Below, piece after piece: positions 11,284 to 30,776 of a stretch of 64,000 nt of DNA. The DNA comes from a virus. Taxonomy: Duplodnaviria; Caudoviricetes. The DNA lies in the IMG/VR virus record IMGVR_UViG_3300024229_000651. One strand, given 5' to 3'. Under the pieces are notes generated by a model. It had not been told where the DNA came from, did not search any database, and was given only the letters and a program-made list of their open reading frames with translations. The translations under genes were made by a program, and so were the position numbers. How positions within the stretch are numbered: the first letter of the stretch is position 1; each line of letters opens with the position of its first letter.

Positions 11284-11293
11284 TACAAAGTCA

Positions 11294-11326
11294 TAAAAAA
11301 AGGAGCATTGATTGCTCCTTTTTTAT
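11294..11326. terminator. Bidirectional intrinsic terminator
   Basis: A-run, GGAGCA-loop-TGCTCC, T-run between convergent gene blocks. Confidence 0.85.
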
Positions 11327-11344
11327 TATCTGATATAAAGTTTG

Positions 11345-12103
11345 TTAACCGGTTTTCTCAATAAAAACAGGATTATGTATACACCACATCGGTGGTAGTC
11401 TTCTTGATACTATTCTAGCAGTGTCTGGTAAATTAATACTCAAATATTCATCTAAGTACTGTGCGTTCCAAAACCAAGAATAATGTGTAGCTTCTACAAC
11501 GGCATCTTCGCCTGAAGTGGCTACACGTTCTACGTTTGTTTGAAGATTATCATTATCAATCAGACAAATCACATCAGCATTTTCTGTATCTTCAACTAGT
11601 CCGGTAGGCAATACTCCGTACTCGTGTGTCCTACGGACAATAAAGTAATTTAATGCAACTTCACGTATAAATGTACCAAACACAATTGCACCGCCAACAT
11701 TTAAATGTTCATAGCATTCGCTAATAATGTTTTTTAATATCTCAGGATCTAAATTACCTGTTTTCATATATGAAAAAATGATATCAAACTTTTCATCCGG
11801 AGAAGACCATGGCATAGGTTCATCTATGTTACCTTCTGGATTATTCATTTGATTATGATGATTCCACTCACGGAAGTCTGCGTTAGGAAACATTTCTCTG
11901 CCTTCCTCTATCGCTTCAGCATCAAATTCAAACACTGTGTAATTTTCTTCTTTGAATTCGCACTCCGGATCATTGAGTAATGTTCCTGCGTTTCCGTACA
12001 ATTCTAAAATTTTTGTGTCCGCAAAAACTGGAGTGTTGTAAGATGAACTGCCTAATGTAGTATTAATATATCCAAATTTAGGAATATATGCTTCGATAGT
12101 CAT
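11345..12103 (-). CDS. Class I SAM methyltransferase-like protein (degenerate motif I)
   Basis: KILELYGNAG, FDIIFSY, HLNVGG; paralog of 15853. Confidence 0.55.
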   Translation of the reverse strand: MTIEAYIPKFGYINTTLGSSSYNTPVFADTKILELYGNAGTLLNDPECEFKEENYTVFEFDAEAIEEGREMFPNADFREWNHHNQMNNPEGNIDEPMPWSSPDEKFDIIFSYMKTGNLDPEILKNIISECYEHLNVGGAIVFGTFIREVALNYFIVRRTHEYGVLPTGLVEDTENADVICLIDNDNLQTNVERVATSGEDAVVEATHYSWFWNAQYLDEYLSINLPDTARIVSRRLPPMWCIHNPVFIEKTG

Positions 12104-12128
12104 TGATGTATCCTTTGTGTGTTAAAGA

Positions 12129-12135
12129 TATTTAT
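12129..12135 (-). promoter_or_regulatory. Late-type promoter ATAAATA
   Basis: Upstream of AAGGA RBS and ATG 12103. Confidence 0.55.
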
Positions 12136-12819
12136 CTACCCTAAAAATTCGTCTTTATCCAAACTGGCAATCAGGTGTATACGTACTTCATTGCTGTAAT
12201 TAGTTGCACAATGAATTTTTGATGTGTCTAACAGATACGAATTAGGTGTCTTAAAATTAGCCATTTGTAGCGTAATTTCTTCACCTGAGTGCTCAACAGA
12301 TGTGAAGTCGTCTGGCCAACCTACTATGAAAGCTCTGTTGGAAGTTTTGATAGGAAAGTGTAACCTCCATGTAAGTATAGCAGATCCTCCTTGCAAGGAA
12401 GGCATATGGTCGTGTCCATCTACGTGTATGCTTAAAGTAGTCCTAGGCGGCAATATACTAATTCGCCATCTATACGCACCTTTTATCGACTGCACAAATT
12501 CTTCTAGATATGTTCCTTGTATTTGCTTCAAGGGATGTATGTATTGCCTTTCGTTAAGCATTTCGTTCTGTTCTCTAGTGAGCTGTGTAGACAAACTAAC
12601 CGATGTATCTAGTCTTGTATTGTTAACAAACGTTTTGCCGGCGATACCATCTGCCCAGTCAGTAGAATCTTTCTCAGAAACTGTTATACTCTGATTTCGA
12701 TATGCTAAAATTTCATTCTCTGTGCCGGCTGCCTCTGCGATAATAGAGTTATACGTAGTAAGGACATCCTTACGTAACTTCATAAAATCAAAGTCTACAT
12801 CTACTTTTTCAAAAATCAT
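12136..12819 (-). CDS. Fe(II)/2OG-type DSBH oxygenase (Asp/Asn hydroxylase-like)
   Basis: LSIHVDG, RLHFPIKT, IHCATNYSNEVRIHLI. Confidence 0.65.
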   Translation of the reverse strand: MIFEKVDVDFDFMKLRKDVLTTYNSIIAEAAGTENEILAYRNQSITVSEKDSTDWADGIAGKTFVNNTRLDTSVSLSTQLTREQNEMLNERQYIHPLKQIQGTYLEEFVQSIKGAYRWRISILPPRTTLSIHVDGHDHMPSLQGGSAILTWRLHFPIKTSNRAFIVGWPDDFTSVEHSGEEITLQMANFKTPNSYLLDTSKIHCATNYSNEVRIHLIASLDKDEFLG

Positions 12820-13487
12820 AACGGTATATTAGTGGAGTCCGATAAATGCAACGAGTCAGGTCCAACCATTCCAGTAATAGTTAAACAATATCTAGGCCAA
12901 TAGCCTACATTACCAGTAGCATGATAGATACCTTCTCTCCAGCAGTGTATATCCCCGATTTTATACTGGTGTAATACTGTATTACCAATTAATACATAGT
13001 GTCCCCAATTCCAATCGTTTAACTGAACAAGATACCTAATTATTTCTGTGTCGTCACTGACTTTTGCAAAATTACGTCTATAATTATTATAACTGTCCCT
13101 ATGCCAGGGTATAGACTTACCTGGTGGTTGTTTTAAAAACATTATTTGCGGATTTACCAAACCCGACTTCTCTGCCATTTTATGAAACAAGTTTGGTAAA
13201 TTATTGCGGCGTTGCATGCCTCCGGTATTGTGTTGAGTGAATCCAGCTGAAGTAATATCGTTGTGATACCCTTCCATTATGCTTTGTGCTTCTGGGTTAT
13301 ATGCTGTTCCCTTGAACTCTACTTCGCTATATGCATCAGTGCTTTCAAAACCATCGTCTGCTAATTTTACAGCATCGTTCAAATCTTCGTGAACAAATCT
13401 GCCAACATGTGTGACGTCATTGTATGCACATGAAGGATCATAATGCCAATCAAAATTTTCGTTATTCCAATCCCAATAACTTTTCAT
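12816..13487 (-). CDS. Fe(II)/2OG-type DSBH oxygenase
   Basis: QPPGKSIPWHRD, YHATGNVGYWPRYCLTITG. Confidence 0.65.
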   Translation of the reverse strand: MKSYWDWNNENFDWHYDPSCAYNDVTHVGRFVHEDLNDAVKLADDGFESTDAYSEVEFKGTAYNPEAQSIMEGYHNDITSAGFTQHNTGGMQRRNNLPNLFHKMAEKSGLVNPQIMFLKQPPGKSIPWHRDSYNNYRRNFAKVSDDTEIIRYLVQLNDWNWGHYVLIGNTVLHQYKIGDIHCWREGIYHATGNVGYWPRYCLTITGMVGPDSLHLSDSTNIPL

Positions 13488-13489
13488 TG

Positions 13490-14200
13490 TTAATAAAATT
13501 CTCCTGTAAAAAATATTCGTCTATGCACATTGTTTGAGCAAAAATCTGTTCCGTGCCAAGTATCAGCACCAGGTGCCCACATCATCGCATATCCGTTTAC
13601 ATATTCTATTTCTTTTATTAAATTAAAACCAGAGTAGCCGCCGTCATCGTTATAGCCAGCCTCTTTTTTCGTATATAATTTTGTACCATATTCAGCATAA
13701 TCGCGAGAATCATCTCCGGTGTACATCACAAGTTTTATTATCCCGACTTCCGTTGATAATCGATTGATTGTATTTTCTCGAATTAGTTCTACTGGATCAT
13801 CCGTATGCGGATATAACACTGCCGATTCTAACTCTATACTAGTTTGATTAACAACTGTTGATTCATTAGGAGTACAATTCCACTTGGCTTCTGCCGCTGA
13901 ATTATATTGTTTAGAAAAATACTCTTGTGATATAAGATTAAGTAAGTCCGTTGGATAGTCATACATCAGCTCGTCAGGTATATCGTCAAATGTACCTCTC
14001 GGAAATCCCACGTTAGCCTGCGCGGATCCGTTAATTACATTTGAAAACGGTTGTGATTTCATACCTATATTGAAAGTCCTTGTGCATAGTTCTTTTAGAG
14101 TATCACTAGTAAACACGATATGTTTAAACGGATGATCGTATACATAAAGCTCTAAACTACTATCAAATTCTGCTAGTTTTTCATTTTTTATTTTTTTCAT
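13490..14200 (-). CDS. 2OG-Fe(II) oxygenase
   Basis: LYPHTD, YGTKLY, TWHGT...RRIF. Confidence 0.6.
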   Translation of the reverse strand: MKKIKNEKLAEFDSSLELYVYDHPFKHIVFTSDTLKELCTRTFNIGMKSQPFSNVINGSAQANVGFPRGTFDDIPDELMYDYPTDLLNLISQEYFSKQYNSAAEAKWNCTPNESTVVNQTSIELESAVLYPHTDDPVELIRENTINRLSTEVGIIKLVMYTGDDSRDYAEYGTKLYTKKEAGYNDDGGYSGFNLIKEIEYVNGYAMMWAPGADTWHGTDFCSNNVHRRIFFTGEFY

Positions 14201-15035
14201 AATTTGTTACTAACTCCTCTGCTTGCTCTCCCCAAAACTTACCAGCTTTAGGACCTCCATTTGCTTTTCCATCGCTCTCACCAGGTATTTTAATCCATAG
14301 GAATGCATCACATTTTTCTTCGCCTGTATCTGTAGTAGGAGGAGAGCCTAACGATCTTCCAGGAGGATTACACCATTCGTTTCCATGTGGGCCGTTGCCG
14401 TTGCGACTAGTGTCTATAACAAAATGATCGTTTGGTCTGAGCTCGCATATTTTTAATGCCCATTCCATGCTTTCTTTTGTTGTTCGATAATTACTTACAT
14501 TTACCGAAAATCCTTTAACCTTATCGTTACATACACTATTTAACAATTTTGCAGAATCTTCGGCATTTAGCCAATTACTGTGTCCTATATCAACGTACAC
14601 AAGCGCATTGCATCTGCTAGTAAAAATTTCAAGACCTTCTCTCATCATATCTAGACGCCATGATGCTTCGTCCTCGTCCATTTCAACTGTATGAGGAAGA
14701 CTGTCAGGTTCAAATATTACTATCGGAGACTGGTCTTTTATGCCATCAGCGAAACTTTCTAAAAAGTAAAAATAACTATCTTTAGAATGTGCTCCGCCTT
14801 TACTATAGTGTCCCATATCTCTATTAGGCATATTGTAAACAACTAATATAGGCAAGCAAGGATGTGTTCTTTTTAGCAATCTAACAATACTATGATCTAA
14901 GTCACGCATTTCTTTGCCGTTTCGCTCACCATACCAGAACGAGACCGGATGGTTGAATATTTTACTTGCTAAAGGATATTTTAGTTTGTGATCTCTTACT
15001 CTATCGAAGTTGTTGACCCAGAGAGGATAGTCCAT
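14181..15035 (-). CDS. Glycoside hydrolase family 6 (endoglucanase-like)
   Basis: VVYNMPNRD, IFEPDSL, YVDIGHSNW, GFSVNVSNY, FVIDTSRNG, WCNPPGR, DAFLWIKIPGESDG. Confidence 0.92.
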   Translation of the reverse strand: MDYPLWVNNFDRVRDHKLKYPLASKIFNHPVSFWYGERNGKEMRDLDHSIVRLLKRTHPCLPILVVYNMPNRDMGHYSKGGAHSKDSYFYFLESFADGIKDQSPIVIFEPDSLPHTVEMDEDEASWRLDMMREGLEIFTSRCNALVYVDIGHSNWLNAEDSAKLLNSVCNDKVKGFSVNVSNYRTTKESMEWALKICELRPNDHFVIDTSRNGNGPHGNEWCNPPGRSLGSPPTTDTGEEKCDAFLWIKIPGESDGKANGGPKAGKFWGEQAEELVTNYEKNKK

Positions 15036-15041
15036 AATATA

Positions 15042-15347
15042 CTATGGGAACATAGGTGCTAGTTCGTCATTGGCATGCATTTCTGTAATAATGTCACATC
15101 CGCCAACTAATTCACTGTTAATAAATAATTGCGGGAATGTAGGCCAATTGCTAACACTGGGTAATGTAGTTCTTACTTCGCTGTCTGCTAAAATATCAAT
15201 GTATGCAAACGGCTTACCCACTTGAATTAAACATTCTATTACTCTGGCACTAAAGCCGCATTGTGGTTGTTGTGGACTCCCCTTCATGAATAAAATGACG
15301 TCATTGCCATCTATCATTTCTTGTATTTGTTCTGCTACTGAGCTCAT
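15042..15347 (-). CDS. grxD: Monothiol glutaredoxin Grx4 family
   Basis: LFMKGSPQQPQCGFS, WPTFPQLFI, VGGCDI. Confidence 0.93.
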   Translation of the reverse strand: MSSVAEQIQEMIDGNDVILFMKGSPQQPQCGFSARVIECLIQVGKPFAYIDILADSEVRTTLPSVSNWPTFPQLFINSELVGGCDIITEMHANDELAPMFP

Positions 15348-15362
15348 TGAATTACCAGTTAA

Positions 15363-15491
15363 TTAATAAAAAATACCGTAAGCTGCACACCATATTTCTA
15401 GTGCAACCATATAAAGCGAATCTGCGGCGAGTATACACAACACGAGTCCTGTAGCAATTAACAATTGCTGTTTCTTTAATAATGCTAACAT
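15363..15491 (-). CDS. 42-aa hydrophobic peptide (not in ORF track)
   Basis: GGAG RBS, then MLALLKKQQLLIATGLVLCILAADSLYMVALEIWCAAYGIFY. Confidence 0.55.
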   Translation of the reverse strand: MLALLKKQQLLIATGLVLCILAADSLYMVALEIWCAAYGIFY

Positions 15492-15512
15492 ACGGACTCC
15501 TTGCTGTAAAAT

Positions 15513-15588
<76 letters not shown>

Positions 15589-15599
15589 TATATCATTAT

Positions 15600-15851
15600 T
15601 TATTCGAAATGTGATTCGAATTCATCAAAATAAGGTTGTTTTTCTTCGAAAGAATCAAACCTAACGCTATTAACGTACTCAGTGAGATCTTCTACGCTTT
15701 CTAGTGTTACAAGCATTTCCCTAGGTGATTGTTTTGTAAGTCTACAAAGTTCTGTCATTACTAAGACTAAGTGATGATGACCAATATCAAGTCTTTCGCA
15801 CAGTAAACGTACATCAGGTTGGTAGTCGGTTTGTGTGGTATCGTCTATCAT
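15600..15851 (-). CDS. Hypothetical protein
   Basis: 83-aa ORF, coupled to upstream gene. Confidence 0.6.
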   Translation of the reverse strand: MIDDTTQTDYQPDVRLLCERLDIGHHHLVLVMTELCRLTKQSPREMLVTLESVEDLTEYVNSVRFDSFEEKQPYFDEFESHFE

Positions 15852-15852
15852 T

Positions 15853-16617
15853 TTATTTTCTCCCGTTTTTTACTATAATTGTTTTTTGTACGTGTCCAGT
15901 CGTAGGAAAACGCATAACATTTTTATACCCAGCTTCCTCAAGTTGTTTAGATAGCCAACCTGGATGGTAGACCGAAACCATATGTTCTAGATGTTTATCT
16001 GAATACAATTCATCGACAATAAGATCACTGTCCACAAGGTACTTGTAATCAACAACACTGGTTTGAAGTTCTTCTATTGTAACACAGCGTCTATTTGGAT
16101 AGTCTACCTTACGTTTCTCTAGGAACCACTCTGCTCCTTGTAAGTCTACAAATGTGACAGCTATCTGTCCGAACGGCTTACATACTCTTCTCATTTCAGC
16201 AAAATCAAAAAGTAATTGTTCATATGTAGTATGACTGTAAACACTATATGCTAATACAAAATCAAACGTGTTATCCTCGTACGGAAATAATAGTTCTTTC
16301 TCTCCTGCAGGATTATACATATGGTTAAATGCATTATGGTGTTTCCAATTAGCAGTCGGACATAATTTCTCACCATAATTTAACGCATCGTTGTTTACAT
16401 CTAAGCAATAATAATTTTCAGGATCAACATCGTTAGATCCATCAACACAATCTAGGATGAAGTTGCCGCAGTTGCCGCCGATGTCTAATATTTTCTTATC
16501 TTTCCACTCGGGCTTACGTAAAATTACATCAAAGAATTTAAAACGTTGCACTCTGGGAAATATACTACTGTTAGTAGAATACCGATTAGTACCTGCTATA
16601 TCTATTGCTGTGTCCAT
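15853..16617 (-). CDS. Class I SAM-dependent methyltransferase
   Basis: KILDIGGNCGN, CLDVN, FPYEDNTFDFVLAYSVYSH, RRVCKPFG. Confidence 0.85.
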   Translation of the reverse strand: MDTAIDIAGTNRYSTNSSIFPRVQRFKFFDVILRKPEWKDKKILDIGGNCGNFILDCVDGSNDVDPENYYCLDVNNDALNYGEKLCPTANWKHHNAFNHMYNPAGEKELLFPYEDNTFDFVLAYSVYSHTTYEQLLFDFAEMRRVCKPFGQIAVTFVDLQGAEWFLEKRKVDYPNRRCVTIEELQTSVVDYKYLVDSDLIVDELYSDKHLEHMVSVYHPGWLSKQLEEAGYKNVMRFPTTGHVQKTIIVKNGRK

Positions 16618-17480
16618 TACAGAGTAATTTTTGTATCATCGGGTAAGCGTTCTTTGCCTGATGTGTTAATACTATCAAACTGCCCTGCGCCTTTGGGATT
16701 GTAATTTCCAAGATCAGCAAAAGGATTAATTTCTCCGGCTACATATTTTTCAAATGTACTTGGAGATTCTACAACGCCAATACGTTTCAAGAACCAATCA
16801 ATTTTACTAGCATGGTGCATACGAGCTTGCGTCATATTAGGATGATTGAAATCTTCTGGATCTTCTGGATTTCCTTCCTTATATACTCTGTCGGCAAATG
16901 TTTTATCATCGTTGCCGCCAGTCAAGTCTGCTCTATCATGCAAAATTTCAATATCGATTTTTTCATAGATGCCGTTCATTCTAGCAATAACACTCACCCA
17001 TGTATCGTTTTGTGCGTTAATACTCCAAGCGTCACATAGAACAAACCAGTCTGCAGGAATAATTGGAAAAATTGCGAAAGGGTGGTCATGATTATCTTTA
17101 GGGGACAATAACTTAAACTGTCCGTCATTTTCCCTAACAGTGTCGTCCCATCCTTTAGTCTGCATTAGTGCATCATCATTCCAAAGGAACAACCATTCTC
17201 CTGTTGATGCATGGCATAACAAGTTCACGTAAACATTTAATTTACTATAGCCCAATGGCTTAAACATTTTTGCTTTACATCCGCATCCATATGGCTTAAC
17301 AAAGTCACCAGCTTCCTTATTGATCCACTCAATAGTTTCTTGGTCGTCTTCATCTACACCCAACATAATTTCAACCGTTGATGGATCGGAAGCATTATCT
17401 AATAAACTCTTTAAACTTTTCTGTAATGCACCGGATGCACGACCTCGAGTGGGTAAAATTATACTAACTCTATTTTTCAT
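16617..17480 (-). CDS. Glycosyltransferase family 2-like (GT-A)
   Basis: VSIILPTRGR, LGVDEDD, FLWNDDA, NDTWV. Confidence 0.85.
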   Translation of the reverse strand: MKNRVSIILPTRGRASGALQKSLKSLLDNASDPSTVEIMLGVDEDDQETIEWINKEAGDFVKPYGCGCKAKMFKPLGYSKLNVYVNLLCHASTGEWLFLWNDDALMQTKGWDDTVRENDGQFKLLSPKDNHDHPFAIFPIIPADWFVLCDAWSINAQNDTWVSVIARMNGIYEKIDIEILHDRADLTGGNDDKTFADRVYKEGNPEDPEDFNHPNMTQARMHHASKIDWFLKRIGVVESPSTFEKYVAGEINPFADLGNYNPKGAGQFDSINTSGKERLPDDTKITL

Positions 17481-17481
17481 T

Positions 17482-18348
17482 TTATTTTCCTGTGATCAAT
17501 TTACGAATGTTTCCGCGGAATGTATAATGCCCAACATGATTGAGTGCTGTGCGTGGATCTAAGTATACTTCGCCACCCATATCTTGCCAGCGCCTACAGA
17601 AGGTATAATCCTCAGATAAATAACGTCTGCTTTCAGGGTCAATAATACAATCAAACAATGCGTACATATGCTTTTCAAACTTTTCATCAACATTAATGTC
17701 GTTTGCATATTTTAATTCAGTGTGCTTTTCGAACATCTGTGCTATAACTTCCTTCTTAATACACATAAATCCTGTACCAGCATCTTTAAGTTTAATAAGG
17801 TTGTCAGTTATTTGAATTTGTGGGATGGGATTTCCCTCGTCATCCTTAACAAAATCAAAGTTCACAACATAATTTGAACTGTGTCCTTCAATTGTTTCAG
17901 GAGTTTCTTCTACGTTCTTTCTAGAAGCTTCGATAATGCTGCCCCAATTAATTGCTTTTTTGGGATATGCACCAACTGTAATTGGCTTATCGTATGCTAC
18001 CATCCGCAATAGATCATTGGGATCGAATTCAATATCTGCATCAATAAAGAACAAATGCGTTGCTTCTGGGTGCTCCATAAAAAAGCTAACTAGTGTGTTT
18101 CTGCCTCTAGTAATTAGGCTTTCGTTAGCCAGTGTACTAATTGTGTACTGAATATCGTACTTGTTACATAGTATAGCAAGTCTCATCATACTTCTAAAAT
18201 ATGGCTCACCAATTTGCCCACCGTAACAAGGTGTAGCAATAAAGATATGTTTGTTTCGTAGTAGTTGGATCGGAATTTCGATCTTGGCATCTAATAAATC
18301 ATGCAGAACCTGATCTGCAGGTTTATCAGAAGTCGTGTTGTCAGACAT
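17482..18348 (-). CDS. GT-A fold glycosyltransferase-like protein
   Basis: IFIATPCYGG, ESLITRGRN, LFFIDADI, AGTGFMCI, SEDYTFC, LNHVG. Confidence 0.8.
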   Translation of the reverse strand: MSDNTTSDKPADQVLHDLLDAKIEIPIQLLRNKHIFIATPCYGGQIGEPYFRSMMRLAILCNKYDIQYTISTLANESLITRGRNTLVSFFMEHPEATHLFFIDADIEFDPNDLLRMVAYDKPITVGAYPKKAINWGSIIEASRKNVEETPETIEGHSSNYVVNFDFVKDDEGNPIPQIQITDNLIKLKDAGTGFMCIKKEVIAQMFEKHTELKYANDINVDEKFEKHMYALFDCIIDPESRRYLSEDYTFCRRWQDMGGEVYLDPRTALNHVGHYTFRGNIRKLITGK

Positions 18349-18385
18349 AATTGTGTTCCTGTGTGAATGTATGTTCTAGTATGTT

Positions 18386-18414
18386 ATACTACACTATTTA
18401 CACAATCATGTCAA
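18386..18414 (-). promoter_or_regulatory. Sigma70-like promoter with embedded late motif
   Basis: TTGACA-17-TAGTAT; GTAAATA inside the spacer (18395-18401). Confidence 0.6.
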
Positions 18415-18433
18415 TGATTATTTTGTTTTCTGG

Positions 18434-18607
18434 TTACCGGGCGCTATCGGAAGGTCTTTTGGAAATGAACGAATTAAGTTTTTCTGCTTCTGAAATAATA
18501 TCTTCAGTTGACGGCATATTTTCAGGCTTACTGGATTTCGCTTGAAGAATTAATCTTGCTTCCTGAATAAGCTCTAATCTAATTTCATACGGGGTTTTAC
18601 TCGACAC
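18434..18607 (-). CDS. 57-aa hypothetical phage protein (not in ORF track)
   Basis: TAGGAG RBS and GTG start; MSSKTPYEIRLELIQEARLILQAK...EDIISEAEKLNSFISKR. Confidence 0.75.
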   Translation of the reverse strand: MSSKTPYEIRLELIQEARLILQAKSSKPENMPSTEDIISEAEKLNSFISKRPSDSAR

Positions 18608-18656
18608 TTAACTGCTCCTACAACAATATTAATATTCTATTTTAGTCCTACACCAT

Positions 18657-18663
18657 TATTTAT
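18657..18663 (-). promoter_or_regulatory. Late-type promoter ATAAATA
   Basis: Upstream of the 18607 GTG gene. Confidence 0.5.
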
Positions 18664-18664
18664 C

Positions 18665-19369
18665 TTATTTAAACAATTTTCCGGACATATACTTTCGATG
18701 CATTACGTTTATATCACACACATCTTCAACCGATGCCGTTAGAATAACTCTGTCAATATCCGACTCTTCGTTATAACCACGATGCATATGTAGAGTATTC
18801 TGAAACCCAGGAACAGTCTGGTTAGTCCATTCCGAAAGTATTTCTGCGTCAGGCAATTCGTCTCGGCTAACGTGCCGCATTCTGTCATACTCTACGGGAT
18901 CAACATCCTTGAATCTAGGAAAGGTTGCCCATTGAGCTTTACTGTTAACAAAATCACCTGACATAGGGAAATTTAATCCGCATCGTCTATCATGGTATGT
19001 TGGACCTTCTGTATGCCATCGACCACTTAACCCCGCGGGTGTTCTTAGCATAACTACATGTGTAAATTTTACGTTTAAAGTGTCGTGCAACCATTCTTTT
19101 AATAATTTAGACAAATCTAAATTTGCCTCTTCGTACATGCCTACCGCAGATGGATCACGCTTATTAAATTTAGAACCTTCGTACGGAATAAAACTGTGAT
19201 ACCAGTTTGCTAGATTAGTTCGTGTTTTGCCTAATGCTACTTCTGGACTTTTTGATTCCAATGCTGTTGACTGTCGAACATCTTCTGGTATTAAAAACGG
19301 CTCTAGATCAAAAGGAGGCATCGGCAACTCCGGAACTTCAAAATAATAAGGCATATGTTCTTTAGACAT
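18665..19369 (-). CDS. DSBH oxygenase-like protein, paralog A
   Basis: GRWHTEG, CGLNFPM, MHRGYN...RVIL. Confidence 0.55.
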   Translation of the reverse strand: MSKEHMPYYFEVPELPMPPFDLEPFLIPEDVRQSTALESKSPEVALGKTRTNLANWYHSFIPYEGSKFNKRDPSAVGMYEEANLDLSKLLKEWLHDTLNVKFTHVVMLRTPAGLSGRWHTEGPTYHDRRCGLNFPMSGDFVNSKAQWATFPRFKDVDPVEYDRMRHVSRDELPDAEILSEWTNQTVPGFQNTLHMHRGYNEESDIDRVILTASVEDVCDINVMHRKYMSGKLFK

Positions 19370-19943
19370 TAATTAATTCTCCAGCCGTATACGCTTCGTA
19401 GACGTCTTGTATTGGGTTATTTAGTGCGGCACTTACAACTATTCTATTCTCATCTGTAAAATTAAATACACGATGCCAATGCATTGTATTATATACAGTA
19501 GCTTGGTTTTGTGTCATTCTATGTTCACTTAATATTTCCATATTCTCATTTTCCCACCAAGCGCCTTTAGTATCATTTAGTAGAATATCATCTTCGTTTA
19601 TTTTACTCCATTGCACATACGAATTCACAAAGTCTCCTGAAATCATAAAGTTTAGTGCACACTGCCTTCCAAATAGATTAGGACCCTCGCTATGCCATGG
19701 ACTCGAACCGTTTGCATTTGTGTTCAACAGTGTAATTGACCCGATCTTAATGTTAAGTTTTTCATCCAAATACTGCTTGATCGCTGCATGCCAATCTGTT
19801 GGGACAGCTCTATACTGGAATGTGTTGCCTCCCATGCCTTTACCAGATGGGCTAAGGAAGTCCATCGGGTGTTGTTTGTATGGCATACTGCTGAATTCTG
19901 CAGGAAGCTGTAGTTGTGGTATATCAAAATAGTAAGGAATCAT
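19362..19943 (-). CDS. DSBH oxygenase-like protein, paralog B
   Basis: SPWHSEG, CALNFMI, WHRVFN...RIVV. Confidence 0.55.
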   Translation of the reverse strand: MIPYYFDIPQLQLPAEFSSMPYKQHPMDFLSPSGKGMGGNTFQYRAVPTDWHAAIKQYLDEKLNIKIGSITLLNTNANGSSPWHSEGPNLFGRQCALNFMISGDFVNSYVQWSKINEDDILLNDTKGAWWENENMEILSEHRMTQNQATVYNTMHWHRVFNFTDENRIVVSAALNNPIQDVYEAYTAGELINV

Positions 19944-19949
19944 AGTAAA

Positions 19950-19956
19950 TATTTAT
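19950..19956 (-). promoter_or_regulatory. Late-type promoter ATAAATA
   Basis: 6 nt before ATG 19943. Confidence 0.7.
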
Positions 19957-19970
19957 CTATGGGTAGATAA

Positions 19971-20999
19971 CTAGCGAGTTTTACTGATAGATATGTCGCT
20001 TAAATTATTACAAAATTCAAACGGGCACACAGTTTCACTTATTGGCAAGTCCCAGTTTTCGATCTGTGTAATATTACCAAAGCTCTTTGCACCGCACCAA
20101 CTACTAATAACCTCACCATTCATATCTATGTTAATGCTATCATAGCCTAATTCACATTTCATGCCTTTAAACTTGTTTAAGCCTTCATTAATAATCTGGT
20201 GGCTCTGTACGTAATGAGTAGATCCGTCGTCATACAAAAATTCTGTACTCCAAAATCTAGGGTGGTCTTGACTGTCGTCATGATCCTGTTGATCTTGTTG
20301 TACCGGTTCCGGAGGTCTAGGTAGTAATCCCGGTCGCTGTAAAATAGCCATTTCATCATCAGTGTAGGCGTAATAAGGATCTTGGTTATTATCGTTGTCG
20401 CCTAAGTATTTGTTGTACAGTGTTTTTACAGTAATATTAACATCATAAATACTTTGCTGTTCGTTGTCTATAAATAACTCACGCAATCTATCTGCAACTG
20501 TGCCTAACTCTTGTACTTGTCCACCTACTCCGGCAATATTTAAATCTATAGTACAATGACCTATTAGTGTTTTAACGACAGCAAATAAATGATCTTCGTC
20601 CATAGTGAGCGGGTGATATGTTATCACAACACCCGATAAATATTCTCTAGCTTCTTCCCACCAGTCTACAGTTCTGCTACCATTAGTGTATATTGTACAA
20701 CTTGAATTATAAGAATGTATTTTTTCAATAATCTTTTCAAATCCAGGTATAGTTGTAACTTCGCCACCAATTAATTCCCAGTGCATGAAGCGACTTTGAT
20801 TACGTTTGTAATGCGTTGATATTTTGTCTACAATGTCTAAATATTGTTGTGTAGACATCCAAGATCTAGAACCATTGTGCAATTCAGTTGGACAATAATC
20901 ACAACTAAAATTACACACATTACCCATACTCCATTGTATCTTAACTGCACGATCTGGGTCAGTAGTATGAGGTCCTTTGACAGATATTAGATTGGCCAT
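19971..20999 (-). CDS. Radical SAM enzyme with C-terminal SPASM/twitch-like Cys cluster
   Basis: CNFSCDYC, IGGEVT, TNGS, C-terminal CELG...SWC...CPFEFC. Confidence 0.88.
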   Translation of the reverse strand: MANLISVKGPHTTDPDRAVKIQWSMGNVCNFSCDYCPTELHNGSRSWMSTQQYLDIVDKISTHYKRNQSRFMHWELIGGEVTTIPGFEKIIEKIHSYNSSCTIYTNGSRTVDWWEEAREYLSGVVITYHPLTMDEDHLFAVVKTLIGHCTIDLNIAGVGGQVQELGTVADRLRELFIDNEQQSIYDVNITVKTLYNKYLGDNDNNQDPYYAYTDDEMAILQRPGLLPRPPEPVQQDQQDHDDSQDHPRFWSTEFLYDDGSTHYVQSHQIINEGLNKFKGMKCELGYDSINIDMNGEVISSWCGAKSFGNITQIENWDLPISETVCPFEFCNNLSDISISKTR

Positions 21000-21004
21000 G
21001 CATA

Positions 21005-21011
21005 TATTTAT
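21005..21011 (-). promoter_or_regulatory. Late-type promoter ATAAATA
   Basis: 5 nt before ATG 20999. Confidence 0.7.
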
Positions 21012-21020
21012 CTTAATATA

Positions 21021-21959
21021 CTACTTGACAAAAGGATACACAAGGTCATTCCAAAATTCTCTGTGTGCAAATGCATGTGGGTGAGATCCTATACTTACTT
21101 CATTAGCCATTTCATCGAAATCGTACGGAGTTTTATCGGGATATTTTTTTGTGTAATAATCTATAATATTTTCATTTGTTATCAAATACGGCTTCACATA
21201 TCTGTCGTATTTTGCTTGGCAATAATTTAACCAATCAGTTGGTAAGTTATCCCACCCATGAAAATACCCCAACTTAATGTTGTTTAATTTACAGTATTGT
21301 GATAGTATTTGTAATTGATCTAATGCTCGGATATAGTATTCGTTAATGTCTGCACAGTAGTCTGCGTAGTACGCACTATAGATTCTTAGCTTATCCTTAC
21401 TTTCCTCTCTTTCTACCATCTGTACATTAATATCTCCAGATTGCTTAATGTATGTAATCTCGCCCAGACGGTATATGTCATATTCCGATCTTTCTCTAAT
21501 TGTTATGTCTAAGTCACGTTGATTTAAGGTTAACACTTCTCTTCTAGCAAAACCGGTTATCTGATATACAACTGTATCAACATCTGAATGGTTTTCCAAG
21601 TAATTAATTACCGCTCTGGCGGATAAACTATTACTTGCTGAACCTTCCCCAGCAAAACATATCCTATATTGATCAACATTTAACATTTTACATTTTTGTA
21701 TGAACGCTAGAGAATCGTATTCCGGGTCATCAACTCCGTGATACTGGGTGTGCCACTTACGTTGCATTCGTAAAGGGTCTTGTGTAGTCCTTGGGTTGGG
21801 GCACTGTGCTGGATCGCCTAAGCCGCATGCATTCAGACCAAAATGATCAAGGCTTCCGTCAGAATCGTATATTGGTTCATATGCTAAAGGTCGTGCGCAA
21901 TAAGCCCAGCTATCACCGCTATGAGTAAAACTGCATCCACCAAATACTAAGTGTCTCAT
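21021..21959 (-). CDS. SGNH-like protein
   Basis: FGGCSFTHSG, GEGSASN, GSHPH. Confidence 0.55.
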   Translation of the reverse strand: MRHLVFGGCSFTHSGDSWAYCARPLAYEPIYDSDGSLDHFGLNACGLGDPAQCPNPRTTQDPLRMQRKWHTQYHGVDDPEYDSLAFIQKCKMLNVDQYRICFAGEGSASNSLSARAVINYLENHSDVDTVVYQITGFARREVLTLNQRDLDITIRERSEYDIYRLGEITYIKQSGDINVQMVEREESKDKLRIYSAYYADYCADINEYYIRALDQLQILSQYCKLNNIKLGYFHGWDNLPTDWLNYCQAKYDRYVKPYLITNENIIDYYTKKYPDKTPYDFDEMANEVSIGSHPHAFAHREFWNDLVYPFVK

Positions 21960-22813
21960 TTTATCGAATCTATCAAGTCTGCTATTACCTGTTGAGTTGC
22001 CATAGGATCAAACGTCATAACTGCATCAACTTTTTTCCAGTCAGTATCTTTCCAAACCTTGCCTTGTTGTACCCAATTATACACTTCTGTCATTTCTGTA
22101 GGAATTGGGAAGTCGGCATGATGATTAATTATAACATCTTTAGCAAGATCATTCTCATACCCTTGTTTGCAAAATCCGTGCGTTACATTGAAAAACTCTA
22201 CGCACTGGCTGTTTGTCTCGTTGGCAAATATTTTAGATTTCTCACTGCTAGTCCAGTTATCATCTGAGCCGTGATATAATTTAACATTATAGTTTTTAGC
22301 ATTATAAAACGCAGATTCAAACGGCCATAAATTTCCATAACAGAGAGCAAAAAAAGCATCGTCGGATAAATTATCCATATGATGACCTAGTATTTGTGCA
22401 AGTGTGTCGGCTCCCCAACTGAAACCAACAAAGGAAATTCTATTAATATTAATTACTTGAAAGAGACTGTCTATATTACTCTTTATATAGTCAACCGCTT
22501 TCATAGTTTCAAATGCCCGTACTTTAGGACTGATATAACTACTCTGACTATCCCAACTCAAAGAACTAATATTTCTGCCTGTAAAACTGTCTACACACAG
22601 GCATGCAATGCCCGCATCAGTTAAACTGTCCACAAACAGTTCTGTGTCACTGCCTAATCCACCACTGCCGTGGCTGATCACACATAAAGGCGTGTCGCCT
22701 GTAAATTTGTTAGGTATAATAACTTCACAGCCAATATCTATTTCAGTGTTGTCCCAAAATATGTTTCGTTGGCTTTTAACGCTGAACAGAATTCGCTTTA
22801 TGTATTTTTTCAT
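21956..22813 (-). CDS. Alpha/beta hydrolase (dienelactone hydrolase-like)
   Basis: ISHGSGG, VGFSWGA, YHGSDDNWT, THGF. Confidence 0.8.
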   Translation of the reverse strand: MKKYIKRILFSVKSQRNIFWDNTEIDIGCEVIIPNKFTGDTPLCVISHGSGGLGSDTELFVDSLTDAGIACLCVDSFTGRNISSLSWDSQSSYISPKVRAFETMKAVDYIKSNIDSLFQVININRISFVGFSWGADTLAQILGHHMDNLSDDAFFALCYGNLWPFESAFYNAKNYNVKLYHGSDDNWTSSEKSKIFANETNSQCVEFFNVTHGFCKQGYENDLAKDVIINHHADFPIPTEMTEVYNWVQQGKVWKDTDWKKVDAVMTFDPMATQQVIADLIDSIK

Positions 22814-23414
22814 CTGATATCTCTTTAAACTTACTGTGATGTATTTTCCATGATACTTGGGGTACTTTATAGAATTCGAATATACCTTCTGGCTCTGCTA
22901 TACCTTTTCTCATCCACCAGTTTCGTTTTATGTAATCTGTTATTTGTGTTGTACTTTTTACATAACTTCCTGAGTACGATTTGTTTGCTAGAGTTGTGCC
23001 AAACGTTGCAACAAAGTCTTTCTGTTTAGATGCCCAGTCACAATTAAAATAAAGTAGCCCGTCGAATTCTGGCATAATGGTCCTGTCGAACCTTGCTCTG
23101 TAATTCATTGGTATATCTGCGTTAGGTATTCGAGCGAGGCGAGTCCAAACACGATAATATCCTTGTTTGTATTCGGGCATGTGTTCTACACCGCCTACTG
23201 CATAAATTTTGTTTGTATGCATATGTACCATACAATGGTACTTAACTTTGTCTACCTTCATAGCATCAAGTGATTCGTTACTAACGTATCCTAGTGATTT
23301 AGCGACAGAACAAAACTCTTCTAATTCTTTTTGCCACGCAGGAGTATATTCTATACACCCAATTTGTCCATCGAAAAATGTTCTTAATGTTTCTGTATCG
23401 GCCATATCATCCAT
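22776..23414 (-). CDS. Hypothetical protein (possible GNAT-like fold)
   Basis: Long ORF, start near MDDMADTE; IYAVGG...RVWTRL weakly GNAT-like. Confidence 0.45.
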   Translation of the reverse strand: MDDMADTETLRTFFDGQIGCIEYTPAWQKELEEFCSVAKSLGYVSNESLDAMKVDKVKYHCMVHMHTNKIYAVGGVEHMPEYKQGYYRVWTRLARIPNADIPMNYRARFDRTIMPEFDGLLYFNCDWASKQKDFVATFGTTLANKSYSGSYVKSTTQITDYIKRNWWMRKGIAEPEGIFEFYKVPQVSWKIHHSKFKEISDEKIHKANSVQR

Positions 23415-24151
23415 CTTCCTACATCGAGTTCGTACCAACGAGTGCTAAAAGATAGCCTTCTTGGAACTGCATGATGATTATTATGTAAACTTTCTCCCCA
23501 AGTAAGGAAAACAAACCAAGGATTATTTGTGCTGTTGTTTTTAGTTTCTGTGGTGTAGTACGTAAGTTTACTGATAGGTGTATGCCCAAATACGTTAACA
23601 AATCCACTAATGAACACAGACAATATACTAGCATTAAGACTAGAAAGGATTAACATTCCATCATATTGCCACCAACTTAACAAAGCAATAACAAGCAAAT
23701 TTGTTATTACTAATAACGCATAATTCTTATGGCACCAAAGGGAATATTGATCTAGTGTTCGTCGAATTTTATATATTTCTTTTGTTGCGAAAGCATGATT
23801 GTCTTTTTGAAATATCCACCCAATAAACGCATACCATTTACCTTTAGTAGGCGTGTGCACATCCTTATCACTATCTGTATGTGCATGGTGACTTCTATTG
23901 TGTAATAATGTCCAAGTAACCGGTGATCCTTGGGCTCCTTGACAACCTAAGTACAATAATGCTTTTCTTATAAACTCGTATGTGGTAAAACTTTTATGAC
24001 TATGCAATCTATGAAATCCTACGCTTATTCCATAACCGCTGTATAATACTGTGAAAACAAAAGTAGATACAAAAAGATGGGATGTGCCATAAACTACTGA
24101 CCATATTAAGCTGGCGAGACAAGCTGGCAAGAAGATCATATAGAATAGCAT
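23384..24151 (-). CDS. Membrane fatty acid desaturase, copy 1
   Basis: His boxes HRLHSH, HNRSHH, HNNHH; GESLH; TM segments. Confidence 0.88.
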   Translation of the reverse strand: MLFYMIFLPACLASLIWSVVYGTSHLFVSTFVFTVLYSGYGISVGFHRLHSHKSFTTYEFIRKALLYLGCQGAQGSPVTWTLLHNRSHHAHTDSDKDVHTPTKGKWYAFIGWIFQKDNHAFATKEIYKIRRTLDQYSLWCHKNYALLVITNLLVIALLSWWQYDGMLILSSLNASILSVFISGFVNVFGHTPISKLTYYTTETKNNSTNNPWFVFLTWGESLHNNHHAVPRRLSFSTRWYELDVGRWMIWPIQKH

Positions 24152-24960
24152 TACTGCAAAACTCCTTTAATCACCCAGCCACTAATATCTATTTCAGACC
24201 AATGCTGACTGTTACTAACTGCTTTCCATTGTCTATGGTGATTATTATGTAACATTTCACCCCAAGTTAAGATAGACCCAACTCTGTTGTTCACACTGTT
24301 ATCTTTAGTTTCGTGGTTCCTATAACCGAACCACGGCATATGGCTAAGTGCTGTTACCAAACTTGTGTTTAGCAGTGTAAACCATACGCCAATTGCAAAT
24401 CCATAGAATGCTAACTCTACACTAAACAACGATATCAACACAAGAGTGCCTAGATTAATCGCAATGTGATAGTCATTTAATATTGTATAATACTTATTAT
24501 TTACAAAATTACGCTTAATATATTTCACTAGTGTGCGGCGATCAATAGCACTATCAAATTCGTATTGGTGTTTATGCCATATTAGAAAACTGTGCCAAAA
24601 GCCTTTTATAGGGGAATGGGGGTCCTCTGGTTTATCACTATGTTTATGGTGGCCTACTTCGTGAATCATAACCCAAGGAAAAATACTACCATATCCGTTA
24701 AAAATAGATAATGTAGTAACAATATATTCTTTCCATTTGGGCATATCGAATGAGGCATGGCTCCAATATCTGTGCAACCCTATAGCCATGCCTACACAAC
24801 CAAATAAGAAATAAAACGCTACTGTTGACCACAGCCAACTGTAGGATTGCGTGTATAGCAATGTTACTAAGGATGCAATTCCAATAAGATGTACTGGAAC
24901 AGTGTAACACCAAAAATTGGTGTTTGCTTTATCGTTAAAAAAGTTTGTTAATAAATTCAA
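24151..24960 (-). CDS. Membrane fatty acid desaturase, copy 2
   Basis: HRYWSH, HEVGHH, DPHSP, GEMLHNNHH. Confidence 0.88.
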   Translation of the reverse strand: MNLLTNFFNDKANTNFWCYTVPVHLIGIASLVTLLYTQSYSWLWSTVAFYFLFGCVGMAIGLHRYWSHASFDMPKWKEYIVTTLSIFNGYGSIFPWVMIHEVGHHKHSDKPEDPHSPIKGFWHSFLIWHKHQYEFDSAIDRRTLVKYIKRNFVNNKYYTILNDYHIAINLGTLVLISLFSVELAFYGFAIGVWFTLLNTSLVTALSHMPWFGYRNHETKDNSVNNRVGSILTWGEMLHNNHHRQWKAVSNSQHWSEIDISGWVIKGVLQ

Positions 24961-25888
24961 AATCGGCTCCGTGGTGTTCTTCCAACATTTGTTTCAATGC
25001 TGTATCAACTTTTACAGTGTATTGTAAACTGGCGAATTTCATTGTTAAGTAGCCGAATTGGGCAATACGTTGTCTAAGTTCTTTATCGTATTTATCATGT
25101 CCGAAAAAAGTTTTTAAAAGTTCTATGCCGATTAGTTTTTCTGTCGTAGGTTCTATGTCAAAACCAGCTTGACGTATAGTTCGTATTTCCGATTGGTAAT
25201 ATCTGTGCGGGGCATTATCTACAAAAGACTGAGTAGGAGACTTTAGCACCGCTCCATAACTTTCTGTAAATAGCCAACTGGTATACATATTGACATCATG
25301 CTCTTGAAAATTTGTATATTCTTTACCGAAGAAAGAGGCTGCATGTTCCTGTGTTTCGTGTGGCACAAAAGGCATGAAGCCATTATTTTTAGATCGTGTC
25401 CACTCACTGTTACTTACATGCATCATGAAGCCTGGATATACTATACAGCAGTCTGGCAACATATCAAAAAACTTCCCCATGATTGTCATCTGGGGCTGTG
25501 TTGTAGGAAAATGTTCTGCATAGTATTCTATTTCATTTTCAAAAAGGTGAGGTACATCAATATGAAATAGTTCATATGGTATATTTCTTTTTTTGCAGTA
25601 TTGTATTGTGCAGTCATTTTCTCGTTTGGAAAGATCATTACTTAATACAGGTATAGCCGCAACAAAATCTATTCCAGCCATTATAAATCCTTGCATGGCT
25701 ATCTGTGCGTACATGTGCTGAACACTATAATCTTGTATCACATATAATGGTTTCGTAAACTTTTTCCTAATTTTTCTTGCAGTGTTTACTGCTTCCTGCA
25801 TAGGAGTACCAGGTTTGGCATCAGGTGCATTCATCATCATGTCTACATTCTGACCACCACTAAATTCAGTAAAAGATATACCCCTCAC
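24935..25888 (-). CDS. Hypothetical protein, possible degenerate adenine-nucleotide alpha-hydrolase fold
   Basis: 317-aa ORF; AGIDF...CKKRNIPYELFHID spacing resembles this fold but SGGxDS is absent. Confidence 0.4.
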   Translation of the reverse strand: MRGISFTEFSGGQNVDMMMNAPDAKPGTPMQEAVNTARKIRKKFTKPLYVIQDYSVQHMYAQIAMQGFIMAGIDFVAAIPVLSNDLSKRENDCTIQYCKKRNIPYELFHIDVPHLFENEIEYYAEHFPTTQPQMTIMGKFFDMLPDCCIVYPGFMMHVSNSEWTRSKNNGFMPFVPHETQEHAASFFGKEYTNFQEHDVNMYTSWLFTESYGAVLKSPTQSFVDNAPHRYYQSEIRTIRQAGFDIEPTTEKLIGIELLKTFFGHDKYDKELRQRIAQFGYLTMKFASLQYTVKVDTALKQMLEEHHGADFEFINKLF

Positions 25889-27021
25889 AATGACTTCCTA
25901 TACAAATGCAAATCATTTAAATTGTATGTTCTTACCCATGGGTCACCGGGCTCTAAGAGTTTTATAGGCTTGCTCATAGGCATCCAATACTCTCTGATAC
26001 TAAACGGTGGAGAATCATACTCACGATTATAATATTTTTCTTTGCATTCTTCGTATGAAGGTTTACTGTCTATATCACATGATATCATGTGCATTTCAAA
26101 ATATTGCTCCCCATTAATATCAAATTGAAACCTGTGAAACATGGCTTGTCTATATTTAAACGTGCCGAATAGCCACCCTGTATTAATATCAAAATTAATG
26201 CCTCTAGGTAAATCTATCGAACAATCTATGACATCAGGATTTATAAACTCCGATAACAGACAATTACCGTATAAGTATGACACAGCATCTCCCTTCTTTA
26301 CAGGCAGTAATTGTTCCCCAGCTACATATCGCAAATTGGAAACAGGAAAAAACTCGTATAGTTTCCTGTTTTTTGTATCATCAGTGACTACTCTCTTTGC
26401 CCAACTTGCACTACGAATAAAAGAATCGCTGTAAAAATCTAGTCTGTGGTCAATATTAATATTCTCGTTTTGTGCAAGTTTATCTGCTATGTATACCGAA
26501 GCAATATTAGAATCGGGTTGATTGTCTACTATGTAGTCATAACAATCGATCCAATTAGTATTACCGGATTTATCCGAACTACCCACTTTTAAGGTGTTAT
26601 CTGCACCAGCTGGGCTTAAATCTAATACAGGTAACTTGTCTTGGCCGCCGGCGCAAACAACTGTGTGCCCGTATTCAATTAATTCCTGAACTCTATTGTC
26701 GATGAGATAGTTTCTAGGAGTTTGCCATGGGAAGCATATCACTGTAGGTGGTATGCATAGTGCATCGTCAATGGCCTCTAAAACATCGTGTAATGAACGT
26801 TTGGCTGTGATGCATACGCAACTAGTATGTTGAGGTTTGTAGCTGGAAACGATGTTTAAATCGTCGGAATTAATACTTACTATGTTGTTATTTGTGGTAA
26901 TATCCAACATTAAATCGTAATCGCTCAAATTATGATCTAACACATAAGTATTATTTCTTAACTCTTTTACAATTTTGTAATTATTATCGTTGAATGTTGT
27001 TGCTAACTGTATTACTATCAT
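25885..27021 (-). CDS. Subtilase-like protein lacking catalytic residues, with Ig-like segment
   Basis: VQELIEYGHTVVCAGGQ, SPAGADNTLKVGSSD; no GTS; LPRGINFDINTGWLFGT. Confidence 0.5.
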   Translation of the reverse strand: MIVIQLATTFNDNNYKIVKELRNNTYVLDHNLSDYDLMLDITTNNNIVSINSDDLNIVSSYKPQHTSCVCITAKRSLHDVLEAIDDALCIPPTVICFPWQTPRNYLIDNRVQELIEYGHTVVCAGGQDKLPVLDLSPAGADNTLKVGSSDKSGNTNWIDCYDYIVDNQPDSNIASVYIADKLAQNENINIDHRLDFYSDSFIRSASWAKRVVTDDTKNRKLYEFFPVSNLRYVAGEQLLPVKKGDAVSYLYGNCLLSEFINPDVIDCSIDLPRGINFDINTGWLFGTFKYRQAMFHRFQFDINGEQYFEMHMISCDIDSKPSYEECKEKYYNREYDSPPFSIREYWMPMSKPIKLLEPGDPWVRTYNLNDLHLYRKSL

Positions 27022-27027
27022 ACAGCA

Positions 27028-27034
27028 TATTTAT
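27028..27034 (-). promoter_or_regulatory. Late-type promoter ATAAATA
   Basis: 6 nt before ATG 27021. Confidence 0.7.
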
Positions 27035-27050
27035 ACTTGGCTGATATTAC

Positions 27051-27331: not shown

Positions 27332-27338
27332 TATTTAT
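27332..27338 (-). promoter_or_regulatory. Late-type promoter ATAAATA
   Basis: At the nrdB stop, upstream of AAGGA RBS of the PAAR gene. Confidence 0.65.
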
Positions 27339-30775: not shown

Positions 30776-30776
30776 C

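Follow-up and report, generated by a model that had tools for sequence, protein, structure and literature searches.

A modular accessory-enzyme island of a T4-type marine jumbo phage, with a candidate role in late lipid and glycoconjugate tailoring

The stretch of DNA analysed here (64,000 nucleotides, hereafter the window) spans bases 153549-217548 of the 339,794-bp IMG/VR virus record IMGVR_UViG_3300024229_000651 (CheckV completeness 91%). Between 11345 and 27021 it carries an island of 21 open reading frames (ORFs) of at least 83 amino acids and one tRNA-Thr, all on the minus strand and packed tightly or overlapping (Table 1; genes are named by their first coordinate). An earlier, sequence-only reading had described this block as a co-oriented cluster of tailoring enzymes, and both its coordinates and its common orientation are correct; minus-strand coding in fact extends over the whole of 11345-27314. 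Upstream the island is flanked by nrdA (28421-30706), nrdB (27339-28433) and a gene for a PAAR protein (27051-27314), and at its other end a plus-strand late block ending at 11283 converges on it. The genome that hosts the island is that of a marine T4-type jumbo phage, with a major capsid protein of the T4 type (Gp23; PF07068, E 2.3e-81). A cyanophage identity was considered and dropped, since psbA is absent from the genome and the desaturases have no cyanophage match.

Related loci were drawn from IMG/VR through the glycosyltransferase gene 17482 (28 loci) and through gene 24935 (10 loci), and the presence and absence of genes were compared over these 28 + 10. In at least 11 contigs (group A) the entire order from nrdA to the terminal methyltransferase is kept, at 43-87% amino-acid identity, so that a synteny of the sort the sequence-only reading expected is indeed conserved in full. 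That the block forms one cluster was not borne out, however, as other lineages keep only a core. Group B retains the PAAR gene, the radical SAM gene, a gene for a 57-residue protein, the glycosyltransferase pair and GH6; where group A has the desaturase operon, it encodes an S8 protease and a PP-loop protein, both intact, together with a class-3 lipase (Lipase_3), a 2OG-FeII_Oxy_5 protein and a peptide deformylase. In group C the radical SAM gene is missing as well, and GH6 is absent from two loci. The core of the related lineages consists of the 57-residue ORF, the GT-A pair, usually GH6, and the S8/PP-loop pair, with no desaturase operon, oxygenases or methyltransferases. Because the lineages differ in content around this shared core, the block is, as judged from gene content, a hyperplastic modular region with a stable core and exchangeable modules. 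One theme (protease-fold, PP-loop-fold, lipase or hydrolase, oxygenase and transferase) recurs across the lineages with non-orthologous parts.

Table 1. Genes and promoter-like elements of the island, in the direction of transcription
Feature	Position	Strand	Basis or conservation
GATAAATA late box before PAAR gene	27332..27339	-	conserved at -5 in 10/12 relatives
PAAR-motif protein (tail spike tip), which anchors the island on its upstream side	27051..27314	-	PF05488 E 2.5e-10; in all related loci
TATAAATA late box, 6 nt before ATG of 25885-27021	27028..27035	-	kept in 2/6 relatives only
Decayed subtilase (S8)-fold relative	25885..27021	-	hhalign to intact group B S8; catalytic Asp and His not conserved
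PP-loop (Asn-synthase/QueC-like) fold relative	24935..25888	-	alignment with group B/C homologues; Atlas lead
Membrane desaturase B (HRYWSH, HEVGHHKH, HNNHH)	24151..24960	-	DesA-family NF049918 E 2.3e-17; invariant His boxes; transmembrane-like segments
Membrane desaturase A (HRLHSH, HNRSHHAH, HNNHH)	23384..24151	-	PF00487 E 5.9e-20; invariant His boxes; transmembrane-like segments
GNAT-like fold protein, clade-restricted orphan family	22776..23414	-	AlphaFold2 and Foldseek
Alpha/beta hydrolase (dienelactone-hydrolase type)	21956..22813	-	DLH 21.5 bits vs cut-off 21; invariant GFSWG
312-residue protein, formerly read as SGNH	21021..21959	-	conserved N-terminal GGCSFT only; variable, absent in several relatives
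GATAAATA late box before radical SAM gene	21005..21012	-	6/6 group A loci
Radical SAM enzyme, twitch/SPASM-like	19971..20999	-	PF04055 38.1 bits vs cut-off 29.5; CxxxCxxC; four invariant C-terminal Cys
GATAAATA late box before oxygenase pair	19950..19957	-	7/7 loci
Two paralogous HxE...H oxygenase-like genes (19362-19943, 18665-19369)	18665..19943	-	weak PF05118; paralogy; invariant WHxEGP...HR
GATAAATA late box before 57-residue ORF	18657..18664	-	13/14 loci
57-residue protein gene, GTG start, GGAG Shine-Dalgarno	18434..18607	-	conserved in all related loci, upstream of glycosyltransferase pair
Sigma-70-type promoter TTGACA-17-TAGTAT, embedded TAAATA	18386..18414	-	before glycosyltransferase gene in all group A loci
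GT-A-like glycosyltransferase, most conserved gene of the island	17482..18348	-	phrog_1574 E 4.5e-44; DAD motif
GT-A (GT2-like) glycosyltransferase	16617..17480	-	phrog_14945 E 1e-6; NDD motif
Class I SAM methyltransferase (UbiE/Methyltransf_11 type)	15853..16617	-	Methyltransf_11 over Pfam cut-off
Acidic 83-residue protein, group A only	15600..15851	-	comparison with relatives
tRNA-Thr (UGU)	15513..15588	-	Rfam
Grx4-family monothiol glutaredoxin (CGFS)	15042..15347	-	TIGR00365 135.6 bits vs cut-off 117.1
GH6 catalytic domain	14181..15035	-	PF01341 E 1.2e-51, 176.8 bits vs cut-off 27; no signal peptide, no carbohydrate-binding module
Three HxD...H oxygenase-like genes (13490-14200, 12816-13487, 12136-12819)	12136..14200	-	Cpz10 match; weak PF05118; motif
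GATAAATA late box overlapping stop codon of 12136-12819, before terminal methyltransferase	12129..12136	-	NATAAATA box in 4/5 relatives
Methyltransferase-like paralogue of 15853-16617	11345..12103	-	under Pfam cut-off; paralogy

Most of the enzyme families that the sequence-only reading had named from their letters hold up against profiles and alignments of relatives. This is so for the two desaturases (profiles, three His boxes each, transmembrane-like segments), the alpha/beta hydrolase (DLH just over its cut-off, GFSWG conserved), the radical SAM enzyme (PF04055 over cut-off, invariant CxxxCxxC), GH6 (PF01341 over cut-off, catalytic Asp blocks conserved) and Grx4 (TIGR00365 over cut-off). 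One of the two methyltransferases, 15853, is clear, while the other, 11345, scores under cut-off and is supported as its paralogue. Two glycosyltransferases are probable, 16617 through phrog_14945 and 17482 through sub-threshold GT-A matches and a DAD motif, as are five double-stranded beta-helix (DSBH) oxygenases, one of them by its match to Cpz10 and the others on weak matches or motifs. The SGNH label on 21021 is not supported, as that protein has no Pfam match and does not answer to the SGNH/GDSL profile with its four conserved blocks. The only GDSL/SGNH match in the genome is a weak one to PF13472 at 1240-1368 (+), in the gene 1198-2043 outside the block.

The clearest unit of the island is the desaturase operon, seven overlapping genes that stay together in at least 11 contigs, with identities of 43-77%. 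Each of the two paralogous desaturases has a Delta-9-type set of three His boxes, and transmembrane-like segments are confined to this pair; the other island proteins look soluble and show no signal-peptide-like sequence. For 22776-23414 the AlphaFold2 model (pLDDT 65, pTM 0.65) has GNAT acyltransferases as all of its top Foldseek matches (TM-scores of 0.35-0.48), which suggests an acyltransferase fold, and the homologues found are close ones only. Because the seven overlapping genes are always linked, the di-iron and serine-hydrolase motifs are intact and one product is acyltransferase-like in its predicted fold, the operon points to the tailoring of fatty-acyl chains.

The first two members of the operon appear to be decayed relatives of known enzymes. 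By hhalign 25885-27021 aligns with the intact S8 protein of group B (92.5%, 76 columns), which itself matches PF00082 at E 2.7e-21, and weak S8 leads from PDB, PHROG and Atlas agree; a test of the Asp-His-Ser triad showed that neither Asp nor His is invariant where the triad would place them. In 24935-25888 the SGGxDS loop, intact in groups B and C, is replaced by DYSVQH in all group A proteins, which are ~75% identical to one another despite the loss of the loop, and the AlphaFold2 model of this protein is unusable (pLDDT 38). Both relatives are strongly conserved. The decayed pair (24935-27021) is co-oriented in group A; the intact counterparts in groups B and C (locus L012, 2775-5479) are divergent.

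The 57-residue protein is encoded in what seemed a 317-bp gap before 17482, under the ORF threshold of 60 residues. It is helical and rich in Lys and Glu, is 60-85% identical in every related locus, and belongs to a family of 55 representatives, all small proteins, with no match in Pfam or among cultured phages. The glycosyltransferase that follows, 17482, reaches GT-A profiles in Pfam at sub-threshold level only (Anp1 and GT21, E 0.02-0.06), and sequence-profile searches of the PDB gave no useful match for 17482, 16617 or 24935. In cyanophage ACG-2014f the homologue of 17482 has tail-collar, GT2 and epimerase genes as neighbours, whereas that of Sinorhizobium phage phiM12 lies within the replication module, between gp46 and gp45; these contexts in cultured phages differ, and the acceptor is therefore not settled by context. 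A UDP-glucose dehydrogenase gene elsewhere in the genome (G000 746-2038, +) also has the late box described below, such that sugar-nucleotide supply may be late. In GH6 the blocks EPD, DIGHSNW, IDTSRNG and PGESDG are invariant in 7 homologues, and among the related loci Grx4 occurs at its position in this genome only.

With regard to the oxygenases, the family of 12136 matches Cpz10 (PDB 7v4f) at E 1.7e-7. PF05118, searched against the whole genome in all six frames, has just three weak matches (12136, 12816 and 19362), all within the block and, at 14-18 bits, under the Pfam cut-off; 18665 is assigned by its paralogy to 19362 and 13490 by an invariant HxD...H alone, neither having a profile match. 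The HxD/E...H iron triad is invariant in each of the four oxygenase family alignments. No link among these families, or to the 2OG-FeII_Oxy_5 protein of group B, was found by hhalign, and the HxE oxygenases, which are present in three copies in some relatives, gave no useful match in a PDB sequence-profile search. PF13759 has no match in the genome and PF13640 has one, in a gene outside the cluster. Eight genes of the cluster between 12136 and 24960 would encode iron enzymes (the radical SAM enzyme, five Fe/2-oxoglutarate-type oxygenases and two di-iron desaturases), and the di-iron NrdB adjoins them; the monothiol glutaredoxin, of the Fe-S trafficking type, is inserted at 15042-15347 among these iron enzymes in this genome only.

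The box GATAAATA occurs 20 times in the window, compared with 5.6 +/- 2.3 times in shuffled sequence, and half of the genome's [GT]ATAAATA sites (39/78) lie no more than 40 nt upstream of an ATG on the same strand, in a genome that is 93% coding. Genes of recognisable function that are led by an NATAAATA box mostly belong to the virion (portal, tail tube, four annotated as 'virion structural', PAAR and a tail-lysozyme-like gene), and the box-led portal gene heads an operon that includes the capsid gene. A search with T4 gp55 by tblastn had no match in the genome, but the PHROG profile did find a gp55-type late sigma factor (phrog_234 E 7.4e-24, G000 289211-289528). Because the boxes are enriched, stand before virion genes, are positionally conserved and coexist with a gp55 homologue, they appear to behave as gp55-type late promoters. 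Late boxes had been claimed before the genes that begin at 12103, 19943, 20999 and 27021, and these are joined by boxes before 27314 (PAAR) and 18607, six in all; a late box before the glycosyltransferase gene or GH6 was never found in relatives. An additional GATAAATA box at 25089-25096 (-), inside 24935-25888 and 129 nt before desaturase B, may be an internal late promoter. Across the whole genome ~20 of 42 box-led genes have their ATG only 5-8 nt after the NATAAATA box, and the rest have a leader of 17-50 nt with a Shine-Dalgarno sequence; the short spacing suggests that some late mRNAs may be leaderless or nearly so.

The claim that much of the block stands under late-type promoters fits the ~9.5 kb that late boxes would drive; the 6.2 kb from 17482 to 12136 has no late box of its own. 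Ahead of this stretch lies a sigma-70-type promoter with the group A consensus TTGAC(T/A)-17-TAnnAT. Sigma-70-like matches over the whole block are at the level of chance (82 vs 77.8), and only two intergenic, conserved ones are used as argument here. The embedded TAAATA recalls the overlapping early and late promoters that have been proposed for phages RB49 and S-PM2 (PMC2984593). Transcription of the genes from 17482 through 12136 can start at the late box that precedes the 57-residue gene as well as at this early-type promoter, and since the latter is conserved, their products may be made earlier too. In group C a tRNA gene occupies the spot of the sigma-70-type promoter. Eleven seawater metatranscriptome runs contain at least half of 17450-27400, which is a weak hint of expression at most.

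Gene families, intact catalytic motifs, promoter boxes, modularity and synteny are directly observed at this locus, and the explanation that we think fits them best, to which we would give about an even chance, is late tailoring of lipids and glycoconjugates by a modular accessory-enzyme island of a T4-type marine jumbo phage. The island would comprise (a) a lineage-wide core of the late 57-residue protein, two soluble GT-A transferases, usually GH6, and the subtilase/PP-loop pair; (b) a translationally coupled acyl-tailoring operon of seven genes, with the decayed subtilase, the decayed PP-loop protein, two desaturases, the GNAT-fold protein and one or two hydrolases; (c) the radical SAM enzyme; (d) five AspH-like oxygenases and two methyltransferases; and (e) the monothiol glutaredoxin and tRNA of this genome only. 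Six gp55-type boxes would drive the PAAR gene, module b, module c, the HxE pair, the 57-residue gene and the terminal methyltransferase, and the sigma-70-type promoter would additionally serve the transferase pair and the genes through 12136. During the second half of infection, the desaturases, the acyltransferase-fold protein and the hydrolases would re-tailor fatty-acyl chains of the infected cell, while the soluble transferases, oxygenases and methyltransferases together with GH6 might assemble and trim, on an acceptor in the cytoplasm, a glycoconjugate bearing hydroxyl and methyl groups.

Several points weigh against this explanation. A single pathway would also explain the order of genes, which in group A is rigid over ~16 kb. 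Two members of the operon, the subtilase and PP-loop relatives, are without catalytic motifs and their role is obscure, and the GT-A assignments and most of the DSBH assignments lie under curated cut-offs. The desaturases matched no cyanophage record at E 1e-3 and so show no relationship at that level to the tested cyanophage desaturases known as vFAD. Timing, substrates and products, finally, are things that we infer.

There is some reason to consider, as a possible but rather unlikely alternative, a single late pathway that decorates a phage protein, in which the oxygenases would hydroxylate, the GT-A pair would glycosylate, and the methyltransferases and radical SAM enzyme would complete the attached group. 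All of the enzymes but the desaturases look soluble and would share the cytoplasm with assembling virions, the late boxes are common to the island and virion genes, and the GT homologue of cyanophage ACG-2014f sits among tail-collar genes. The acceptor could be the 57-residue protein, whose gene stands ahead of the GT pair in every case and ranks with the best conserved ones, or else virion proteins, for instance PAAR and a late, Ser/Thr/Asn-rich protein of 901 residues, the genes of which flank the island. Given this small conserved gene in the cluster, the statement in the sequence-only reading that no precursor peptide was recognised was premature, although nothing marks the 57-residue protein as a substrate: it is helical and Lys/Glu-rich, unlike typical precursor peptides, and no leader or recognition domain was recognised. 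By the criteria used for clusters of ribosomally synthesized and post-translationally modified peptides, the 57-residue gene is present, but no class-defining enzyme is intact and a leader/core signature was not seen. Lineages B and C, moreover, keep the 57-residue gene and the GT pair without HxE oxygenases or methyltransferases, and membrane desaturases and lipase-type hydrolases do not fit a protein-decorating pathway. A bolder proposal, which we consider less likely again, is that the 57-residue and GT-A core together with the HxE oxygenases, radical SAM enzyme and methyltransferases constitutes a hydroxylate-then-glycosylate system decorating a small phage protein or virion proteins, while the desaturase operon makes its lipid or acyl partner; one of the most abundant lineages of marine jumbo phages would then have a class of late modification, of virions or virocells, that is so far undescribed.

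Still more doubtful is a small-molecule product (a glycolipid, an N-acyl amino acid or aminolipid, or a compound of nucleoside type) made late and then either set free when the cell lyses or retained in the membrane. Among solved structures 12136 is closest to Cpz10, a beta-hydroxylase of a lipo-nucleoside antibiotic pathway, and the combination of a GNAT-fold protein, di-iron membrane enzymes, AspH/LpxO-type hydroxylases and methyltransferases recalls the ornithine-lipid enzymes OlsB, OlsC, OlsE and OlsG. However, a scaffold enzyme (nonribosomal peptide synthetase, polyketide synthase, ATP-grasp or intact adenylating enzyme) is missing, PF13444, the family of OlsB-type acyltransferases, has no match in the genome, the PP-loop relative lacks its nucleotide-binding motif, and the content of the island is modular across lineages.

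Post-replicative DNA hypermodification, by which bases would be hydroxylated and then glycosylated or methylated, is scarcely credible: the block follows nrdAB, the phiM12 homologue of 17482 sits in a replication module and an early-type promoter serves the GT segment, but neither Tet_JBP (PF12851) nor C5 DNA methylase (PF00145) is found in the genome at E 1, the oxygenases are like AspH and Cpz10 and not like nucleic-acid oxygenases, the methyltransferases are UbiE-like, no kinase, DNA-binding or base-flipping domain was found, and there is no place in such a scheme for desaturases, lipase-type hydrolases or GH6. Late timing had been taken to favour modification of virions or of a lipid or glycan over that of DNA, and TET-type chemistry is indeed unsupported here; the accompanying premise that DNA modification must be early is too strong, because the mom gene of phage Mu is a late gene, and late expression alone is thus no bar.

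Several features around the island deserve mention in their own right. The 901-residue protein (31217-33922, -) has no PHROG match and has its own late box at 33957-33964, and because its gene lies upstream of nrdA, nrdAB is bracketed by late genes that are probably structural. Relatives keep, at the island's far edge, a gene (9047-10666, +) for a protein of 539 residues whose N-terminal part weakly resembles a cytidylyltransferase domain (HxGH-type motif) and whose tail is long and acidic. Rfam reports nothing beyond the tRNA over 11000-31000, and in a megablast of the block against cultured phages the tRNA alone was matched.

If late lipid re-tailoring and the building and trimming of glycoconjugates are indeed what the island does, these phages would reprogramme the envelope chemistry of the infected cell late in infection, with bearing on lysis, superinfection and carbon flow. 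The lineage would seem to be abundant in the sea, because the island's central GT-A family, which has no annotation, forms at least 8000 metagenome sequence clusters and is carried on contigs of 316-345 kb. Clonable test cases are offered by the phage GH6, by the paired desaturases, and by the two enzyme relatives that stayed strongly conserved after loss of their catalytic motifs.

Individual components have known counterparts. The late boxes resemble the late promoters of T4 (TATAAATA, read with gp55/gp33/gp45) in sequence, in the presence of a gp55 homologue and in their association with virion genes, but the consensus here is GATAAATA and the ATG is often very near the box; they match the late promoter (NATAAATA) that has been reported from T4-like cyanophages (PMC2984593). 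Phage desaturases have been characterised in cyanophages, where the Delta-9 desaturases (vFAD) are active lipid enzymes (Roitman et al., PMC5776448). The island's pair shares with them a membrane-enzyme type and three His boxes of the Delta-9 kind (HRxxSH / HxxHH / HNxHH), but its nearest phage matches are in an Acinetobacter phage (28%) and pelagiphage Mosig (25%), and the two divergent paralogues share their operon with genes for a GNAT-fold protein, for hydrolases and for two decayed enzyme relatives, in a genome without psbA. Cpz10, a beta-hydroxylase of caprazamycin biosynthesis that depends on 2-oxoglutarate (PDB 7v4f; PMC9814697), aligns with the 12136 family over the HxD motif, the distal His and the RxH region, but the match is distant and no other caprazamycin gene is present. 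The GH6 protein has the full catalytic domain and all signature blocks of GH6 endoglucanases and cellobiohydrolases and differs from these in being phage-encoded, without signal peptide or carbohydrate-binding module; its relatives in the cultured-phage collection amount to three records.

For the island as a whole, the closest parallels are the hypervariable regions of auxiliary metabolic genes in cyanomyophages and pelagimyophages, including the 'host recognition cluster' (PMC2984593, PMC7029224). In pelagimyophages such regions hold AspH-like hydroxylases, radical SAM genes, glycosyltransferases and a stearoyl-CoA desaturase, and have been read as serving modification of the host surface (PMC7029224). 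There as here, a T4-type genome has conserved anchors around a variable gene set, NATAAATA late boxes are present, and the content runs to glycosyltransferases, Asp/Asn beta-hydroxylase-like proteins, radical SAM enzymes, a desaturase and a peptide deformylase. The site differs, theirs lying at VrlC-gp14 or g15-g18 and this one between nrdAB/PAAR and a convergent late block; the genome here is also twice as large, and no tail-fibre genes lie inside the island. The GH6, the twin-desaturase operon and the 57-residue gene are not described in either account (PMC2984593, PMC7029224). The locus belongs to a known kind, the hypervariable accessory islands of T4-like marine phages, and several of its parts are undescribed: the GH6 of a phage, the operon in which paired desaturases adjoin two decayed enzyme relatives, and the conserved late 57-residue gene at the head of an abundant GT-A family that has no annotation.

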